From the IMG/VR virus record IMGVR_UViG_3300032050_000002: 64,000 bases of DNA; one strand, given 5' to 3'. A model generated the notes under the pieces. It did no database searches, was not told the DNA's origin, and worked only from the letters and a program-made list of their open reading frames with translations. Within the stretch, counting starts at the first letter, position 1. Each line of letters begins with the position of its first letter. Source of the DNA: a virus (lineage: Duplodnaviria; Caudoviricetes). Position numbers and translations under genes: made by a program. Positions 24,747-38,350 of the stretch are shown piece by piece.

Positions 24747-25370
24747 ATGAAAACAATAATAAAAACAATAACAATCGCATCAACTGTTTTGTTATCATCA
24801 ATCAGTTGTAGTTTTAAAACAAAACCAGAATCATTTAAAGATGGTGATATAATATTCCACACATCTAAGTCACAACAAAGTAAAATGTTAAAATCCGCTA
24901 CGGGTTCTAATTTAACTCACGTTGGTGTTATTTTTTATAAAAATGGGTTACCTTATGTAATTGAGGCGGTACAACCTGTTAAAGTTACTAGTTTAAACTC
25001 TTTCATTAACAGAGGTGAAAATGCTAAATACAAAGTAATGAGATATGAAACCGAATTAACTAATGAAGATAAAAATAAAATGATTTCTTGGGGTAAAAAA
25101 CAACTAGGTAAACCGTACGATATTAAATTCCAATGGGGAGATAATACGATGTATTGTTCAGAGTTAGTTTGGAAAATGTATAAAAATGCGGGTATTGAGT
25201 TGTGTGAAACTAAAAAATTTTCGGACTTTAATTTAACTAACGAAAAAGTAAGGCAAGCAATAAAAAGTAGATTTAAAAATAAAAATGAATTTAGTTTAAA
25301 TGAAGTAGTGGTTGCTCCTGTTGATATTTACAATAGTGATAAATTAAATTTAATCTATTCTAATTTTTAA
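24747..25370 (+). CDS. YiiX/YebB-like permuted NlpC/P60 cysteine hydrolase, lipoprotein-like
   Basis: GDIIFHTS, THVGVI, GKPYD, YCSELVWKMY; N-terminal signal with SC. Confidence 0.85.
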   Translation: MKTIIKTITIASTVLLSSISCSFKTKPESFKDGDIIFHTSKSQQSKMLKSATGSNLTHVGVIFYKNGLPYVIEAVQPVKVTSLNSFINRGENAKYKVMRYETELTNEDKNKMISWGKKQLGKPYDIKFQWGDNTMYCSELVWKMYKNAGIELCETKKFSDFNLTNEKVRQAIKSRFKNKNEFSLNEVVVAPVDIYNSDKLNLIYSNF

Positions 25371-26461
25371 ACTGAGCCAGAATCAATACCAAATAACTTC
25401 ATTTCCCTTGTCATCATATTAGGAGTTGGGAAACATTTATCGGGTATATTGACTCCTGAAGCCTTAACAACCTCTAAAGCATATGTGCCGCAATTAGCGG
25501 CATCATTGCTAATACTAAAATCAAGAGCACTATAGTCTTTTTCTTTTACACTTTTCGCGTAACTAATACCTTGTGATATATTAGGAGCAACTGTTAACAC
25601 CCAATCCATAGGTAATCTAGGTCCTTCCCCTTCAGTTCTTGATTTAATAATTTTAACAACGTCCTCAATATTTAAAATATTTTCACCATCTATTTTTGCA
25701 ATTTTACCTAAATTTTTACTGACAACAGTACCAAATCCTTTAGTTTTTACACCAGCGTATCTACCAAATTCAAATATCTCAACATTACCATTTGAATTTA
25801 CCGTGGCAACTCCACCGTGACCTAATTTACCATATGTTTTATCATTTCTAAAAGGATTTTCACCTTTAAATAAATCGGTTACAACATCTTTACCCGAAAG
25901 AGATAAGATTTTAATTGCATATGCGGACATTATATCAAATTTTGAATTACCATCCACTTTTGGTTTATACGTTGGAAATGAAAATGTTATGACAAATCCT
26001 TTATCTGTTTTTATTGTTGGTCTTTCTAAAGTACCTTTGTTTTTAGATTTTAATAAACTATCATCTTTATTAACAACTCCAGAACTTTTTGTAGAACAAC
26101 TTCCTTCTTTTTGATATCTTAATAATGCTTTATTTGTGATATTACCAAATCTACCGTCATCACTACCTTTAGGTAAACAACCTAGTTGTATTAATTTACC
26201 TTGTAATATTTTAACATCATCTCTTGTTGATGGTTTTTTGTTTGTCCCATCCCCAAGTTTTAAATTTTTAGGATTAATATCCTCAATAGGTTTACTAACG
26301 TTAGTATCAACAGGTTTAGTTATTTTATTATCAACGCTTTTAGTGCTTGTTGATGGAAAATAAGGTAATTCCTCATTTAATAAATGTTTACTTATAGCGT
26401 TTTTGTGCATTTCAAGAATCCTACTTTTTTCAGATTCATCAATAAATAATTTGTTTTTCAT
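25367..26461 (-). CDS. Leader + peptidoglycan-binding domain + putative His/Cys (permuted papain-like) hydrolase
   Basis: DVKILQGKLIQLG...DGRFGNITNKALLRYQ (PG_binding_1-like); GHGGVA and NCGTYA. Confidence 0.6.
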   Translation of the reverse strand: MKNKLFIDESEKSRILEMHKNAISKHLLNEELPYFPSTSTKSVDNKITKPVDTNVSKPIEDINPKNLKLGDGTNKKPSTRDDVKILQGKLIQLGCLPKGSDDGRFGNITNKALLRYQKEGSCSTKSSGVVNKDDSLLKSKNKGTLERPTIKTDKGFVITFSFPTYKPKVDGNSKFDIMSAYAIKILSLSGKDVVTDLFKGENPFRNDKTYGKLGHGGVATVNSNGNVEIFEFGRYAGVKTKGFGTVVSKNLGKIAKIDGENILNIEDVVKIIKSRTEGEGPRLPMDWVLTVAPNISQGISYAKSVKEKDYSALDFSISNDAANCGTYALEVVKASGVNIPDKCFPTPNMMTREMKLFGIDSGSV

Positions 26462-27831
26462 ACTAAATAAATATTTGGTAATTTGAGAATATTTTCATAA
26501 ATTTGTATTATGAAAACAATAATAATCATAACATCAATTTTGACTATATACATAATCTCTAATTTTTTTTCATATGAAGAAATTTTTGTGGTTAATAGTA
26601 TTCCTCAAAACAATTTTAAAAATTTTAATTACAAGTCTCAAAATATTGACGAGTTAATTAATGAGTCTTTAGATATTACATTAAATGAGTTGTCTTTTGA
26701 CTTAAAAAGTCAATATAATTCTGATGTTAATAAATTAAACGAAACACATGTCGCCCATTGTATTGGGTATTCTAATTATTTTAATTCTGTTTTACATAAA
26801 TTAGTAGTTAATAATAATTTAAAAAATATTAAAATAACTCACGTTAGGGCTAAAGTTAAATTTTTAGGTGCGAATCTTCATGTTATAAACATGAAAGAAT
26901 TTAAAGACCATGATATTTGTGTAGTATACGACAACAATACGAATAAAAAATATATTATTGACCCAAGTCTTTCTGAAGTTTTTGGTAAAATAATTATTAA
27001 ACAGTAATATTAACCGGAAATCCTTTATATTCACCAGTCTCTCTAAAAGCCACTGTATTTCTAATAACACTATAAAGTGTAGATTTGCCATTCCACCAAC
27101 TACCAACTTGGTCAACAAAACTCTTCATAAGGTCTTCTTTAGTTTTGCCTTCAGTATTAAAATCATATGTATCTAAAACAGTAACTTTTGATTTGTCGGG
27201 AGATACTCTGATATTCGGAGGGTCTATTCGTCCAAGAGTATACATAAATTGACCTGCTAATTCAGGTTTAAGTAAACTTCCTTGACCTCCTTTATCTAAA
27301 AGTTTTTTGTTTTCTTTTTCAGACCCGGCTACAGTCATTGATGTTGGTAAATTACCAGCACCAATCTCTTTCCATAAAGGATAGTTTAATCCTCTTTTGG
27401 CGTTTGCGATTGCAACCTTTTTTAGAAATATTTGTTCATCAGCGGTTAAATCTTTAGCGGTAAATGGCTCCGTTCTTCCGACCAAATAATCCATTAAAGC
27501 TCTTATGTGTAAAGGTAATGAAGATTTTTTTGATTGGGGTATGTTATTAATAAATGTTTTCATTTCTAGATATTTATCAATATTTCCACCATATAAATTT
27601 CTTTCAAATTCACCCCCTCTACCTAAATAATCACTGGATAATGGTTTATTAGTGTAATGTAAATCATTAGTTGTATTATCATTTTGAGTTTTAATTCCTA
27701 CCGATTTACAACTTCCTTCTTTTTGATATCTTAATAATGCTTTATTTGTGATATTACCAAATCTACCGTCATCACTACCTTTAGGTAAACAACCTAGTTG
27801 TATTAATTTACCTTGTAATATTTTAACATCA
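26096..27831. repeat. 124-bp identical repeat (26096-26219 and 27708-27831) encoding the shared PG-binding domain
   Basis: Direct comparison of both copies. Confidence 0.9.
26510..27007 (+). CDS. Hypothetical protein with N-terminal TM and possible transglutaminase-like Cys-His-Asp triad
   Basis: HCIGYS, DHDICV, IIDPS. Confidence 0.45.
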   Translation: MKTIIIITSILTIYIISNFFSYEEIFVVNSIPQNNFKNFNYKSQNIDELINESLDITLNELSFDLKSQYNSDVNKLNETHVAHCIGYSNYFNSVLHKLVVNNNLKNIKITHVRAKVKFLGANLHVINMKEFKDHDICVVYDNNTNKKYIIDPSLSEVFGKIIIKQ

Positions 27832-28016
27832 GCGTTTAATGATGGATTTTTTGAGGTTCCGTCGCCAAGTTTTAATTTTTTGGGGTTTATATTTATATTC
27901 TTGTTATTTGGAACATAAAGTGATTCCTCATTTAATAAATGTTTACTTATAGCGTTTTTGTGCATTTCAAGAATCCTACTTTTTTCAGATTCATCAATAA
28001 ATAATTTGTTTTTCAT
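26997..28016 (-). CDS. Leader + peptidoglycan-binding domain + unrelated C-terminal domain (TLG...DTYDFN)
   Basis: Identical N-terminal 31 aa and PG-binding segment to 25367-26461; different C-terminus. Confidence 0.65.
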   Translation of the reverse strand: MKNKLFIDESEKSRILEMHKNAISKHLLNEESLYVPNNKNININPKKLKLGDGTSKNPSLNADVKILQGKLIQLGCLPKGSDDGRFGNITNKALLRYQKEGSCKSVGIKTQNDNTTNDLHYTNKPLSSDYLGRGGEFERNLYGGNIDKYLEMKTFINNIPQSKKSSLPLHIRALMDYLVGRTEPFTAKDLTADEQIFLKKVAIANAKRGLNYPLWKEIGAGNLPTSMTVAGSEKENKKLLDKGGQGSLLKPELAGQFMYTLGRIDPPNIRVSPDKSKVTVLDTYDFNTEGKTKEDLMKSFVDQVGSWWNGKSTLYSVIRNTVAFRETGEYKGFPVNITV

Positions 28017-28418: not shown

Positions 28419-28879
28419 TGGATGTAAATAAAGAAATAGAAAGAAAATTCTTACTTAGAAGATTCCCAAAGATTGAAGGTGATTATACACGATACAAGAT
28501 TAAACAGTGGTACACTCCTGACGGATTAAGATATCGATTTCAAGTCGATACAAAAACAAATGATGTATTGATTTATAAGACAAAAAAATCCAACATATCT
28601 AAGGGGGTCTTTCAAGAAGATGAAGAACCTATTTCTTTAAAAGAGTTTTTGGAGATTGATTTATCAAAGGTGAGAATATTAGAAAAAATAAGAACGGTAG
28701 TAAAACATAAAGGGTTTGATTTTGAAATAGACGAATTTAAAGATTATGATTTAATAACATTAGAGGTTGAACTTGATGATATTAATGAGAAAATACCGTT
28801 CCCTGAAAATATTAAAAAAGAAATTGTAAAAGAATTGACCGGATTAAAAGAATTTAGTAATTTTGCATTATCAAAATGA
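28418..28879 (+). CDS. CYTH (triphosphate tunnel metalloenzyme) domain protein
   Basis: EIERKFLL, KIRTVV, FEIDEF, TLEVEL. Confidence 0.85.
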   Translation: MDVNKEIERKFLLRRFPKIEGDYTRYKIKQWYTPDGLRYRFQVDTKTNDVLIYKTKKSNISKGVFQEDEEPISLKEFLEIDLSKVRILEKIRTVVKHKGFDFEIDEFKDYDLITLEVELDDINEKIPFPENIKKEIVKELTGLKEFSNFALSK

Positions 28880-29547
28880 TACGAATAGAGCCAGATAGAA
28901 AAGGTAGATTTCCTGATGTGTGGGTAACATCTGATACTCATTATCATCATAGAAATATCTGTAGGGGAGTTACAGGATGGAGACTACCTGACGGCTCAAT
29001 TCCTATCGACCAAACAAGAGACTTTCCAACTATTGAAAAAATGAATTCTATAATTGTTGACAATATCAATAGTGTTGTAAAACAACAAGATATTCTAATA
29101 CATTTGGGGGATTGGTCTTTTGGAGGTTTTGATAAAGTAAGAGAATTTTATGATAGACTTGTTTGTAAAAACATACATTTGGTTTTAGGAAACCACGATG
29201 AACATATTGAGAATAATAAAGATAGTATTCAGGAGTTATTTCTGACGGTGTCAACTTATCAAACCCTTGTTATCGGAAGCAAGAAGTTTGTTCTAATGCA
29301 CTATCCGATAAGCTCTTGGAACGGGTTGAATAAAGGGGTGATGCACCTTCACGGTCATACTCACTTACCTACCGAAATCCGATTCGGGAAAGGAAGGAGA
29401 ATTGATGTCGGCATTGATGGTCATCCCTCGTTCAGACCTTATCACATCTTAAAAGAAATATTCCCTATGTTAGATAGGAGAGAAATTATGTCAGATATGT
29501 TAAACGACCATCATACAGATGATATTGTAAATAAAGACAATGGATGA
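28876..29547 (+). CDS. Calcineurin-like metallophosphoesterase
   Basis: TSDTHYHH, HLGDW, LGNHD, HLHGHTH, IDVGID. Confidence 0.9.
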   Translation: MIRIEPDRKGRFPDVWVTSDTHYHHRNICRGVTGWRLPDGSIPIDQTRDFPTIEKMNSIIVDNINSVVKQQDILIHLGDWSFGGFDKVREFYDRLVCKNIHLVLGNHDEHIENNKDSIQELFLTVSTYQTLVIGSKKFVLMHYPISSWNGLNKGVMHLHGHTHLPTEIRFGKGRRIDVGIDGHPSFRPYHILKEIFPMLDRREIMSDMLNDHHTDDIVNKDNG

Positions 29548-33716: not shown

Positions 33717-33896
33717 TTACTTTACTTCTTTTGTTGAGTCCGCCGCAACAACAGTTGCGGTGTCAACAGGTTTAACTGAATTAGTGTCAACCACAACTAC
33801 CGCAGTTGAATCTGTTTTAGGAGCCTCTGACTCACCACCTCCACAAGAAGTTAACGTTACCGTTAAAATTGCTAATACTAAAATTACTTTTTTCAT
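33717..33896 (-). CDS. 59-aa Bacteroidota-type lipoprotein (real ORF is opposite the + ORF listed in the track)
   Basis: Manual translation MKKVILVLAILTVTLTSCGGGESEAPKTDSTAVVVVDTNSVKPVDTATVVAADSTKEVK*; lipobox LTS/C. Confidence 0.8.
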   Translation of the reverse strand: MKKVILVLAILTVTLTSCGGGESEAPKTDSTAVVVVDTNSVKPVDTATVVAADSTKEVK

Positions 33897-33992: not shown

Positions 33993-34387
33993 TTGTTAAT
34001 TAAGATTTTTTTATTACCTTTGTAAAACATTTGAGGAAAGGTTAATATTTATAGTTTCTCGAATGAAAAAAAAAGTTTGAGAAAAATTTGGTAAATTAAA
34101 AAATTCTTCTTATCTTTGTAAAACAAATCGGGAATGTCCGATTAGTTCTTTGAAAAAAAAGTTTTAGAAAAATTTGGTAAATCCAAAAATAATTCTTACC
34201 TTTGTAAAAGAAAATCGGAGTAAAAAACTGATAGATTCTTTGAAAAAGAAGTTTAAGAAAAGTTTGACAGAACAGAAAATTTTTCTTAACTTTGTAAAGA
34301 GTTTGAAAGTGGGAATGAGGTCATAAAGATTCCTTACTTAGTAAGGTTATAAAGGTTCCTCACCACAATCAACTCGGTTCTTTGAAA
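33993..34387 (+). promoter_or_regulatory. Four tandem Bacteroidota sigma-A promoters with three hairpin + boxA-like elements
   Basis: -7 TAnnTTTG at 34015, 34111, 34197, 34287; -33 TTTG at 34087, 34173, 34263 (20-nt spacers); (G/A)TTCTTTGAAA at 34145, 34235, 34377. Confidence 0.85.
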
Positions 34388-34394
34388 TATTGAA

Positions 34395-35247
34395 TTATCC
34401 ATTCAGTCCTCGATTATGAGACCTTCGGGTTGATTATGAGGGGATACTGATAAATGATAATCGGCCGTATATGGTCGTTAAATAAACTACGAAAGTAGGA
34501 TAAAGTGGGGTCACCTGTGTTAGTGATTCTGCGGCTCGGGAAACTGAGCTCGAGTATACAAGTGGGATATCATCCGACCTTTAGTACTGAGGGCAACGCT
34601 TTAGGGAAAGTGGTTTGGTGACCGAGCAATGTGGATTGTTAGGTTGAGTTCGGAAGAACAATAAGAATAACTCATAGGAATCCTGTAAAAGGTGTGGTTA
34701 TCCGACCATATTATTGCGGTTTCCAATTTAAAAGTGGACTTAAAACCGAAAGGTAAGATGGAGAACGAGTGGTGTCGCTACCGTCCTTATTAACGACCCG
34801 CCAAGGTTGTGATATGAAGTAAACTTAAAGAATGGAGATGGGGACATTTCACGGAGTAGTTTGGCATTCAGTTGTTCAAAAGATGACTGAACCTAAGGCA
34901 GACCACTACTTCGATTAATCCACGACACGTACTTAAATAAACTAAAAATTTGTTCAAAGGAAAAGTGTCTGTCAGGTATCGATGAAAGGTGACTACATAG
35001 TAATGAGTCGTTCATTGCACACGAAGACCCCAAGTCTGAATGTAATCTTACCAAAAACCTCTAGTTCCGCAAGAACGAGTTGGGGAGGCATCCTCGAAGA
35101 GAGTTGAGTAATAAGAGAGTAATTGATACCTCAAGGAGTGGTTTACCTAAATAACCGTCACTGAGGAATACTTTCCAAAAAAAAGTGGAAATGTGAGGAA
35201 CTAATAATCTCACTAAAGGTTCTCAAGTAATGGTGTATTCTCAGCCA
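34395..35247 (+). ncRNA. Large (~850 nt) ornate structured RNA, GOLLD-like
   Basis: No credible ORF, raised GC, many UUCG/GNRA-capped hairpins (34421-30, 34487-98, 34514-29, 34745-54), long-range AGTGGT(34768)/ACCACT(34902), size, tRNA adjacency and a 3' end (GTATTCTCAG) resembling my recollection of GOLLD. Boundaries approximate. Confidence 0.7.
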
Positions 35248-35265: not shown

Positions 35266-35340
35266 TGCGGGTCAGAGAAATGGTAACTCGTTAGGCTCAT
35301 AACCTAAAGACGGATGGTTCGATTCCATCACCCGCTACCA
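35266..35340 (+). tRNA. tRNA-Met (CAT), initiator-like, CCA encoded
   Basis: GCGGGT/ACCCGC acceptor with unpaired U1:U72, A11:U24, TTAGG-CTCATAA-CCTAA anticodon arm, GATGG-TTCGATT-CCATC T arm, ACCA end. Confidence 0.92.
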
Positions 35341-35400: not shown

Positions 35401-35740
35401 ATCCAAAAACATAAGTTCGGTTGTTATATTGTGTGTTTTATAGTTTTTGTTGTTCACGATTTCATCCTGTGTAAGGAAAAAATGAATACAAAAAAACTGA
35501 TGTTGAGTCCTAAATACACGACTCACCCGTCTAAAGGAAAAAAACTGTACGAAACCGATTTTTTAGGGTGTGGTAGTTTGTGATAACCACAAGGTCTTCA
35601 GGTGATTCAAGAAAGACCGAAAACACACAAACGTAAATTGGTTTAACCAACGTCACAACTCACGTAAGTAGTTACAATATGGTTCACTCACCATAATAGT
35701 AAGGTTTAAAAGTTATCCTTGTGAAAGAAACTTATGGCTT
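35401..35740 (+). ncRNA. Unclassified ~330-nt multi-stem RNA candidate
   Basis: Long-range stems 35410-17/35729-36 and 35429-39/35620-30, possible pseudoknot 35417-22/35553-58, and at least six local hairpins. Confidence 0.65.
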
Positions 35741-35742
35741 AG

Positions 35743-35787
35743 AAGGGAGATATCGATTTAGCCAACGATGTCTCCCTTTTTTATTTT
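35743..35787 (+). terminator. Intrinsic terminator closing the ncRNA cluster
   Basis: AAGGGAGATATCG...CGATGTCTCCCTT followed by a T-run. Confidence 0.85.
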
Positions 35788-35812
35788 GTACTTTTTCATA
35801 TATTTATTTAAT

Positions 35813-36415
35813 ATGAGAAATTTCTTTTTTTATATTCTTTTTAGTTTATCACTATTAAAATCATTTTCTCAATGTAGCGGTAATTTAACTTTTACTTTAA
35901 CTCCATCCCCACCAGTCGGTGGTTATACTCCAGGAACAACAGTTAATGTCTGTGTTACTTTACAAAGTTTTACTCAAACAGGAAGTAATTGGTTTGAAGG
36001 TTTTGATATTAATTTAGGTTCAGGTTGGACTAATGTTACTCCGGTATCATCACCCGCAAATTGTGGTGGAAATAGTACTGGTGGTCAATGGTTATGGATG
36101 ACATCAGTAACATCAGACGCGACCCCATCAGTTACCGTGGGACCCGGATATTTTTTTGATAGAAATAGTGATGGAAATCCTGGAAATGATTATGGTGATA
36201 GTAATGGTTCAAATTGTACTTGGACTATGTGTTTTAGTGTTAGGGTTTCTCAAAATTGTATTCCTCAAAATTTATTAATAGAAGTGGCTGCGGCTGCTGA
36301 CGGAGTTTGGGGTAGTTACACAAGTACAGCATGTGATAATGTTAATTACGTTAATATATACACAGGAACAAGTAGCGCAACTCCTGTTGTTTTAGGTGCT
36401 ATAAGTCATAATTAA
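35813..36415 (+). CDS. Secreted beta-rich protein, C-terminus LGAISHN
   Basis: Bacteroidota-type signal peptide ending SFSQ/C; paired Cys; start reassigned to MRNFF. Confidence 0.75.
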   Translation: MRNFFFYILFSLSLLKSFSQCSGNLTFTLTPSPPVGGYTPGTTVNVCVTLQSFTQTGSNWFEGFDINLGSGWTNVTPVSSPANCGGNSTGGQWLWMTSVTSDATPSVTVGPGYFFDRNSDGNPGNDYGDSNGSNCTWTMCFSVRVSQNCIPQNLLIEVAAAADGVWGSYTSTACDNVNYVNIYTGTSSATPVVLGAISHN

Positions 36416-36426
36416 AAAATAAAAAA

Positions 36427-36996
36427 ATGAAAAAGTTACTCTTAATTCTATTCACAATGTTAACCACAATATCTTTTGCTCAGTTAACAACTAATAACCC
36501 TGATACAATTTGTCCCAATGCTACGGGCTCAATTTATCAAGTCCCATCGTTAGGTGCTGGGTTTAATTATACTTGGACTGTAGTATCTCCAGGAACAATA
36601 ACCGCAGGTGCTGGAACAAATCAAATTACGGTTAATTGGGGTTCATTACCCGCAGGATTAAATACAAACGCGGTAAGTGTAATTGCGACTAATACTGTTA
36701 CAGGATGTCAAAGTCAACCCGTTAATCTAAATGTGTTTGTATTAACATTAACACCGACAATTACTTCAATAGGACCTTTTTGTCAAGGAGCTCCTTGTGT
36801 TAATTTAGTTGGAACTCCGTCAGGTGGTTTATTTAGTGGAACAGGTGTAGTGAGTAATCAATTCTGTCCTACAACAAGTGGAGTAGGTTCTTTTACTGTT
36901 ACTTACACTGTAACTCAAAATGGTTGTAACTTTAGTACATCAACAACAGTTGTTGTTGGTCAAAACCCTGTATTAGCTCCAATACAACATAATTAA
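36427..36996 (+). CDS. Secreted PKD/Ig-like domain protein, C-terminus LAPIQHN
   Basis: Signal peptide ending SFA/Q; YTWTVVSPGTITAGAGTNQITVNW; GTPSGGLFSGTGV...FCP...VTYT. Confidence 0.8.
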   Translation: MKKLLLILFTMLTTISFAQLTTNNPDTICPNATGSIYQVPSLGAGFNYTWTVVSPGTITAGAGTNQITVNWGSLPAGLNTNAVSVIATNTVTGCQSQPVNLNVFVLTLTPTITSIGPFCQGAPCVNLVGTPSGGLFSGTGVVSNQFCPTTSGVGSFTVTYTVTQNGCNFSTSTTVVVGQNPVLAPIQHN

Positions 36997-36997
36997 A

Positions 36998-37567
36998 ATG
37001 AAAAAATTATTCTATATATTTTGTTTTTTATTTCCTTTGTTTGGTTATACACAACAAGTAGTAGAATTGTGTGATGACGGACAAACAACATTTACTTATA
37101 GTTCCCCCCAAAGATTATCAGGTGTTAATGTTTGGACTTTAAATCCTGGTACAGGTAGTAGTGATGTTTTTGTTAATGAGTTTAGATATACTTGGACTGA
37201 AATAGGCGAATATAAATTAAGATTAATTTTTATAACAAATACTGGATGTTATGATAGTACTTTTTATACAATAAAAGTAATTCCTTGTACTCAAACATTT
37301 ATGTGGTTTCCAAATGCTTTTACCCCTACTGGAGATGTTGAAAATGAAACATGGTCACCCAAAGGAATTAATTATACCGACTTACAATATTCAATTTATA
37401 ATAGATGGGGTGAATTAGTTTTTAATTCTAATTCTGAAGATAAACCTTGGGACGGTACATTAAATAATAAACCTTGTCAAACAGATGTTTATATTTTTGT
37501 TTGTTTTTGGAAGGGGATAGACAAACGTAATTACAAAAAATACGGTCATATTAGTTTAATTAGATAA
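36998..37567 (+). CDS. T9SS type-B sorting (gliding-motility-associated CHU_C) domain protein
   Basis: FPNAFTPTGD..NETW, IYNRWGELVF, WDGT, DVYIF, GHISLIR. Confidence 0.9.
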   Translation: MKKLFYIFCFLFPLFGYTQQVVELCDDGQTTFTYSSPQRLSGVNVWTLNPGTGSSDVFVNEFRYTWTEIGEYKLRLIFITNTGCYDSTFYTIKVIPCTQTFMWFPNAFTPTGDVENETWSPKGINYTDLQYSIYNRWGELVFNSNSEDKPWDGTLNNKPCQTDVYIFVCFWKGIDKRNYKKYGHISLIR

Positions 37568-37637
37568 TCTTTATCTTCCACTTAAAATTACTATTTTTAT
37601 TTTACCCTTGAGGTATAAACAATTTAATCTTTGTAAA

Positions 37638-37928
37638 ATGGGACTTACTTATTTTGCTTTAGGAGCTCTGTCGATTGTGGCCGTGATATTTGTTATGGTT
37701 ATAGTTATCGGTACTAATAAAATTTTTAGATTAGAAAAAAAAGTTGAGGATTTTCAAACTCAATATGGAAATGACTTAGAAAGAAGTTATAGAAATTTGG
37801 ATGAATTTCGTCAAAACATTTATCGTGATATGGACGTTAGAATTGGTGGTCTATATAGAAATATGGATGAACAAATTAAAGAATCTAAAAAGTATACGGA
37901 TAAACGAATAGATAAGAGTTTAAACTAA
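37638..37928 (+). CDS. Single-TM + coiled-coil protein
   Basis: Start reassigned to MGLTYFALG; hydrophobic N-terminus. Confidence 0.6.
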   Translation: MGLTYFALGALSIVAVIFVMVIVIGTNKIFRLEKKVEDFQTQYGNDLERSYRNLDEFRQNIYRDMDVRIGGLYRNMDEQIKESKKYTDKRIDKSLN

Positions 37929-37963: not shown

Positions 37964-38350
37964 TGGTGGAGATATTGGGAGTCGAACCCAAGTGCTAAAC
38001 ATCCCAAGTATTAAGGACTACATGCTTAGGATAAAGTTTTCTAACTTTCCAAAAATAGTTAATTCGTTCTTCACCATCGTAAATTAACAACCAATGAATG
38101 ACTCGATTTAGGGTTCAGTCATTTTTCCACCTCTATTTAGACTCCTGTTTCTAGGTTATATGTCCACCGACCCAATTGTGTGACTTAATCTAATTAAGCC
38201 ACAGCTACTTCTTCAGTACGAATTAATCCTACAGAAGTAAGTTTGTTGATTACGTTGCCGTATATCGATTTGAATCAGTTTTAACAAGGTTAACTCAGCC
38301 TTGACATGCCCCGAATAGTTGATTATGCTAGTCGATACCATTTTATCCCC
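37964..38350 (-). ncRNA. ssrA: tmRNA, tag (A)GNVINKLTSVGLIRTEEVAVA*
   Basis: 5' GGGGATAAAATGGTATCGAC; 3' GGGTTCGACTCCC...CTCCACCA tRNA-Ala-like domain; resume codon GGC after ATATAC; tag ORF 38259-38194. Confidence 0.95.

Follow-up and report, generated by a model that had tools for sequence, protein, structure and literature searches.

Relation to known secreted adhesins and fimbriae

The closest described relatives of the locus reported here are the type-B adhesins of Bacteroidota's type IX secretion system (T9SS), represented by SprB with SprF in Flavobacterium johnsoniae and by PG1035 with PorP in Porphyromonas gingivalis (PMC12618676, PMC9143113), in which a signal peptide and a stalk of immunoglobulin-like (Ig) or PKD domains are followed by a C-terminal domain (CTD) of the family TIGR04131. 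The locus is a cassette of three genes, here called P1, P2 and P3, at positions 35813-37567 of a stretch of 64,000 nucleotides (the window) from the IMG/VR virus record IMGVR_UViG_3300032050_000002 (Caudoviricetes). It shows the same elements, but known type-B cargo are single chains that each carry their own CTD, whereas two of the three pieces found here lack it and end in a donor-like tail, and the whole is phage-borne. We propose that P1 to P3 together make up a single T9SS type-B surface adhesin, exported as separate pieces that are joined by donor-strand complementation, a reading to which we assign a probability of roughly 0.7.

For this mode of joining the nearest parallel is found in donor-strand fimbriae, whose incomplete Ig-like subunits are completed by a strand of their neighbour and whose tip, shaft and anchor genes lie in one operon; the type V pili of Bacteroidia donate a C-terminal strand. 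P1 to P3 would share with them the incomplete subunits, the grouping of tip, shaft and anchor genes and, as in type V pili, a putative C-terminal donor. Unlike type V pili, however, they are not lipoprotein precursors (there is no Cys at +1) and do not have the pilin fold: the mature chains begin with Gln and have PKD or Ig folds. They also differ from chaperone-usher fimbriae: the putative donor lies at the C-terminus and corresponds to strand A, in contrast to an N-terminal extension that replaces strand G, the subunits are PKD domains, and the anchor is a T9SS CTD. No chaperone or usher is seen in the open reading frame (ORF) lists of the loci (these families were not scanned genome-wide). 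Judged from sequence, the assembly principle would therefore resemble that of donor-strand pili yet fall outside the chaperone-usher and type V classes. GhpA of Aureispira (PDB 9FLP, 9FLS) is among the solved structures closest to P2 (template modelling score 0.58-0.61; VIA Z 7.3, root mean square deviation (rmsd) 3.6, 146 residues aligned) and likewise forms a surface appendage of a member of the Bacteroidota from Ig repeats arranged in tandem, but it is one giant chain, and a Z near 7 reflects a common arrangement and not kinship or function.

Phage-encoded T9SS cargo has been reported once, as type-A enzymes of Cryophage, whose T9SS-tagged proteins vary in their cargo part between relatives (Bellas et al., 2020, PMC7468147). 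The present cassette resembles these in the variable cargo part and the presumed use of the host machine, but Cryophage encodes single enzymes with type-A CTDs, while the cassette is of type B, adhesin-like and split three ways. Our literature search, which did not extend to subscription journals, found no CTD-less or donor-strand T9SS assembly, no strand complementation of PKD domains and no phage type-B cargo.

Domain organization of the three genes

All three genes lie on the plus strand. P1 (35813-36415, 200 amino acids) has a putative signal peptide, a Cys-rich beta-sandwich and a tail ending in VLGAISHN. Its start was set at 35813, although the ORF program gives 35768, in agreement with an identical database protein of 200 amino acids and with the placement of a TATTTAT motif (see below). 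P1 had no match among Pfam, NCBIfam or PHROG families or in a sequence search of the PDB, and its matches to Atlas families were all below 0.9; 255 homologues were found. In a linked structural model of a relative (see below) the P1 domain is predicted to resemble the beta-sandwiches of Gram-positive CnaA-type pilins or adhesins and of YcnI (VIA Z 8.4-8.9, rmsd 3.1-4.0, 117-132 residues aligned), a common fold that says nothing of the ligand.

P2 (36427-36996, 189 amino acids, ending in VLAPIQHN) is the conserved middle subunit. Its putative signal peptide is followed by a first domain (about 36481-36744) that matches PKD_6 (PF19408) with 43.8 bits (cut-off 25) over profile positions 9-76 of 82 and has no strand A, and then by an intact Ig domain and the tail. 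P3 (36998-37567, 189 amino acids), the putative anchor, consists of a putative signal peptide, a PKD-like acceptor domain (about 37052-37288) and a type-B T9SS CTD (37307-37564) that scores 55.3 bits against TIGR04131 (cut-off 35) and 55.7 bits against PF13585 (cut-off 27). Read directly from the sequence, the beginning of P3 is basic and has a hydrophobic core, and the Gln with which the mature chain starts is invariant. The first domains of P2 and P3 are homologous (hhalign 97.4% with signal peptides included, seen with mature rows too). Domain scans gave no match to type-A or type-B CTD families in P1 and P2, and a secretion domain was recognized only in P3. Both the shared IxHN ending of the first two genes and the canonical type-B CTD of the third, which a first-pass annotation made from the letters alone had pointed out, are thus confirmed.

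The tail as the proposed missing strand of the next domain

When representatives were searched with a profile, all matches were giant repeat proteins and none of them had the tail at its end; 186 PKD_6 repeats from 17 giant proteins served as the reference for intact repeats. Their pattern is P..IxG-xxVC, where 92% have the Ile and 97% the Gly (n = 186). At the same two positions the first domain of P2 has Thr (73/76) and Asn (72/76), and it begins just ten residues ahead of the Cys of xxVC; that of P3 begins even later. In the AlphaFold2 (AF2) monomer model of P2 (predicted local distance difference test, pLDDT, 95) the short first strand is present in domain 2 and absent from domain 1, and the tail is unpaired. 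With a scoring matrix derived from the intact repeats alone, the best-scoring window was the tail itself, in register, in 60 of 118 P1 proteins and 57 of 79 P2 proteins, the tails reaching means of 5.6 bits (P1) and 6.9 bits (P2) against -3.8 for shuffled sequences. Within the cassette, PVVLGAISHN (36383-36412, plus strand), the best strand-A window of P1, would serve as donor strand A for P2, and PVLAPIQHN (36967-36993, plus strand) as donor for P3 and possibly for another P2.

Natural fusions join what is separate here. A 732-amino-acid protein of the 634-kb phage LR745206.1 aligns to mature P2 plus P3 (36%) with no gap at the junction, and in P0384 the stretch PVISPITYN continues directly into DTIC. 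The Atlas holds viral fused clusters of 347 and 670 amino acids; in locus L010 a P1 domain is fused to repeats and a CTD, and in L006 a P2-type first domain is fused to a CTD next to a tail-bearing gene. When the three in-frame genes of a related locus (L073) were read through their stops and modelled with AF2 as one chain, both tails gained strand bridges that are not in the P2 monomer, and the ranges 365-469 (which holds the P2 tail) and 169-288, each comprising a tail and the next domain, aligned with one whole PKD domain (Z 10.2, rmsd 2.1, 82 aligned, and Z 8.5, rmsd 2.2, 83 aligned, respectively). In a complex prediction for the trio the control scored as high as the complex, and the result was used neither for nor against binding.

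From the sequence comparisons, we interpret the tail preferably as a donor strand and not as a sorting tag. The first-pass annotation had offered both roles, within a split adhesin-like assembly. That assembly gains support from the conserved tails (see below), the register match, the fusions and the linked model, the last three of which also speak for strand donation, while a new sorting signal has become less credible because the tail corresponds to a strand that is part of the ordinary structure.

Conservation of the tail

Lack of conservation of the HN tail in homologues had been named as one of the outcomes that would refute the original reading, and it was not observed. The HN ending is found in 119 of 120 P1 homologues and IxH[ND] in all 81 full-length P2 homologues, and the motif is better given as P-x-[LIV]-[GST]-[PA]-I-x-H-N, in which Ile(-4), His(-2) and Asn/Asp(-1) hardly vary. 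The codons of these residues vary at synonymous positions, so that selection acts on the peptide; the same variation ruled out an origin of the tails as derivatives of a DNA repeat. At position -6, P1 tails mostly have Gly and P2 tails Ser or Thr. The His-Asn pair is specific to the split state and is not present at fused junctions.

Among 645 distinct ORFs of the window and the viral loci, 101 end in [IV]xH[ND], where about 0.1 would be expected from the ends of the other ORFs; as the loci were retrieved via cassette genes, this count shows confinement and not frequency. All 101 are first- or second-slot types, and 98 of them have a signal-like start, compared to 68 of the 544 others (by a crude rule). 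When 401 Bacteroidota genomes were scanned at the DNA level with a pattern for the tail, 40 gave matches, nearly all of them out of frame, but a reversed control pattern also matched often and the scan yields no prevalence.

Distribution and exchange of the first slot

Relatives of P2 are encoded in at least 170 IMG/VR stretches. For 59 distinct P2 genes, a tail gene was found directly upstream in 57 cases and a CTD gene directly downstream in 55. In other loci P1 is replaced by at least seven other first-slot cargo types, all with the tail (ALK/LTK glycine-rich, SprB-repeat, PKD and several unnamed proteins of 262-490 amino acids), giving at least eight tip types overall. The ALK/LTK glycine-rich tips (PF12810, 37 bits) occur in the phage cassettes L001:4393-5448, L047, L071 and L085. 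The cassette sits at unrelated positions among the loci, usually away from structural genes.

The same layout is also found on bacterial chromosomes. A metagenome-assembled genome of Chitinophaga encodes proteins of 2104 and 450 amino acids ending in IxHN, followed by a CTD protein of 359 amino acids, and the arrangement recurs in other Chitinophagaceae and in metagenome contigs. Other Bacteroidota have it with different tail endings, one with an adjacent PorP/SprF-like gene (L096, L131); as the bacterial cassettes L096, L131 and L217 end in SAITRQ, SPVLLRR and PAIYHR, searches for HN alone undercount the system. Because the layout is chromosomal in Bacteroidota, the phage module reads by sequence as a compact form of a bacterial system, and it was probably taken by the phage from its host group; the idea of a phage invention has lost ground accordingly. 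The phage version, whose three proteins have 170-180 residues each, is smaller than any other form found and therefore the easiest to test. Full-length single-chain type-B adhesins (683-1670 amino acids, with GEVED, SprB or PKD domains) are also present on phage contigs (L009:9232-12354, L010:1489-3540, L193:3423-8435), in one case at a distance of 1.5 kb from a split cassette.

Proposed assembly and export

The sequences show that all three pieces begin with a signal-like stretch, that P2 and P3 open with a PKD domain that lacks strand A, and that P1 and P2 end in a match to that strand. We suggest that the pieces would be exported by Sec, with disulfides forming in the periplasm, and that the tail of P1 would complete the first domain of P2 and the tail of P2 the first domain of P3. 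The CTD of P3 would then engage a host orphan-type PorP/SprF shuttle, and the chain would be carried out (or assembled outside) and held on the surface with its tip outward. P1 would thus be a swappable tip, P2 a spacer or repeating shaft and P3 the T9SS anchor, and late expression would give the infected cell a new adhesive surface.

T9SS export is assumed to require a CTD on every substrate. If the tails work as we infer, CTD-less proteins would ride on or dock onto a tagged anchor, which would enlarge the Bacteroidota secretome by surface proteins hidden among the "hypothetical" ones and offer a plug of 10 residues for surface display. It also suggests that abundant lake phages re-dress host surfaces with exchangeable adhesins, which would extend the single Cryophage report to a widespread module.

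By its sequence P3 would be an orphan type-B cargo, as are three substrates of F. johnsoniae (PMC12618676). Since the F. johnsoniae orphans share one host shuttle, Fjoh_1677 (PMC12618676), and type-B proteins stay surface-bound on PorP-like barrels with their CTD intact (PMC9143113), use of a host shuttle by P3 is plausible. A region of the window with a weak PorP-like score (28876-29547) was dismissed, as the protein encoded there lacks a signal peptide and looks like a metallophosphoesterase.

P2 may repeat because its two ends bear an acceptor and a donor, respectively. Repetition into a fibre is favoured by P2-like tails that stand ahead of P2-type acceptors in L048, L064 and L006, by L006 also in suggesting that pairing of tip and anchor does not require P2, and by codon bias, which together with start context ranks P2 above P3 in 51 of 53 loci and on its own ranks P2 above P1 in 38 of 53. 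On the other hand, the single-copy fusions and a codon bias of P2 well below that of the capsid gene argue for caution, and the difference at position -6 (Gly versus Ser/Thr) could enforce a fixed 1:1:1 order. We regard a fibre as possible but do not favour it; otherwise P2 would be a single spacer. Even more tentatively, the cassette might stand for a kind of fimbria not described before: a fibre with a T9SS anchor whose PKD domains are completed by C-terminal donor strands, with P2 as its shaft and with tips that can be exchanged. It would have its origin in Bacteroidota and have been taken over by many jumbo phages of fresh water. If so, infected cells would put out an adhesive filament that the phage specifies with no more than 1.75 kb of DNA.

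Several observations weigh against the three-piece adhesin. The PorP/SprF-like partner named in the first-pass annotation was not found in the phage records searched: no such gene lies beside the cassette, and none was detected in four large phage records (281-642 kb, with 1-4 type-B genes each) despite a bacterial control that gave 23 hits. Mature P3 has 171 amino acids, at the short end of the 150-235 needed by type-B signals (PMC12618676). The loci are related and their counts not independent. The linked model is of a relative, covalent through the signal peptides, without a control and with a predicted template modelling score (pTM) of 0.52; proximity is therefore imposed, and the model shows fit and not binding. 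Finally, the near-invariant His-Asn differs from the Gly-Pro of an ordinary strand A, so the tail may have a role beyond that of filling a groove.

Timing of expression

A TATTTAT motif at 35801-35807 (plus strand), 5 nucleotides before the ATG of P1 at 35813, is a candidate phage late promoter; TATTTAT(A) is the reverse complement of the T4 late promoter. The motif is not clearly enriched in the whole window (74 occurrences versus 60.5 ± 7.6), but it lies at most 45 nucleotides before the first gene in 37 of 53 loci, and 4-7 nucleotides before the ATG in 32 of these. It precedes 20 window genes, many of them structural, whereas TAnnTTTG, the -7 box of Bacteroidota housekeeping promoters, precedes 12, and no gene has both. 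Late expression of the cassette is plausible because TATTTAT precedes structural genes and is never shared with the host-type element. The late timing suggested in the first-pass annotation keeps its basis in a positioned motif, a candidate promoter, that is common to structural genes. Freshwater RNA runs (n = 20) share 5-7% of the words of 35600-37700.

Alternative explanations

The main purpose of the cassette could be competition, with P3, loaded or not, occupying PorP/SprF shuttles or masking T9SS-dependent receptors to block other phages and the tips being secondary. Mutations in T9SS and gliding genes lead to phage resistance in Flavobacterium, where SprB and RemA are thought to be receptors (PMC9804748), and two phages of 630-640 kb, LR745206.1 and LR756502.1 (L200-L206), carry 4 and 3 type-B CTD genes, respectively, without a PorP/SprF gene of their own. 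Two of these CTD genes lie in open frames of only ~120 amino acids, and one (L206) reads as nothing more than a CTD with a signal peptide. If shuttle decoys exist, genes of this bare-CTD kind are more likely to encode them than the three-gene cassette. Jamming needs a CTD alone and leaves the conserved P2 and the at least eight tip types unaccounted for, and late expression would be poorly timed for exclusion. We consider this purpose rather unlikely; as it concerns purpose only, it is compatible with donor-strand assembly.

Alternatively, the IxHN tail might be a stand-alone sorting or modification signal that a host or phage protein recognizes, with P1, P2 and P3 travelling separately. This would account for a near-invariant terminal His-Asn on unrelated cargo, unlike the Gly-Pro of intact repeats. 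However, every tail gene precedes a gene whose first domain misses exactly that strand, the 732-amino-acid LR745206.1 protein and P0384 are collinear across the junction, the bacterial relatives keep the layout with other endings, and the ORF lists of the loci contain neither a conserved fourth gene nor a linked receptor gene. A separate signal is therefore unlikely.

A role in the virion, in which the product would fold in the periplasm, be set free by lysis and decorate the particles in the manner of Ig-type capsid or tail proteins, would agree with the TATTTAT motif that the first gene has in common with structural genes and with the occurrence of Ig/PKD folds on virions (Hoc and other phage chains are among the fold matches). 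But P3 retains a full T9SS domain, above cut-off and with its conserved motifs, the cassette is usually not near structural genes, and bacteria have the same layout on their chromosomes, which makes this role quite improbable. That the tails are functionless leftovers of gene fission, as fused forms and the position of the tail where the next repeat would start might indicate, is largely refuted and very improbable, given the signal-like start of each piece, a His and Asn kept across synonymous codons and absent from fused junctions, and a gene order kept in 55-57 of 59 loci.

Genomic setting

A T4-like portal (53875), a prohead protease (57204) and a gp23 capsid protein (61909) identify the window as part of a large T4-like phage. 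The nearest relatives of the capsid protein include uncultured huge phages and Flavobacterium 'immuto' phages (41-44%), and these, together with the TAnnTTTG elements, indicate that the host is probably a member of the Bacteroidota.

The three-gene cassette lies between a GOLLD RNA (34852-35247, plus strand, 317.7 bits) with a tRNA-Met (35266-35340, plus strand) on one side and a transfer-messenger RNA (37964-38350, minus strand) on the other; 34380-34850 is probably the 5' half of a full GOLLD. The unannotated region between tRNA-Met and P1 (35345-35790, plus strand), without a match in an Rfam search, folds better than shuffled sequences (z -2.4) and has a terminator-like hairpin at its end. 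Adjoining this RNA island, an ORF of 59 amino acids (33717-33896, minus strand) is lipoprotein-like, with a signal ending in LTSC and a low-complexity body. At 25367-28016 (minus strand), two neighbouring paralogues share a common N-terminus, the first of which has PG_binding_1 and TseH-like domains.
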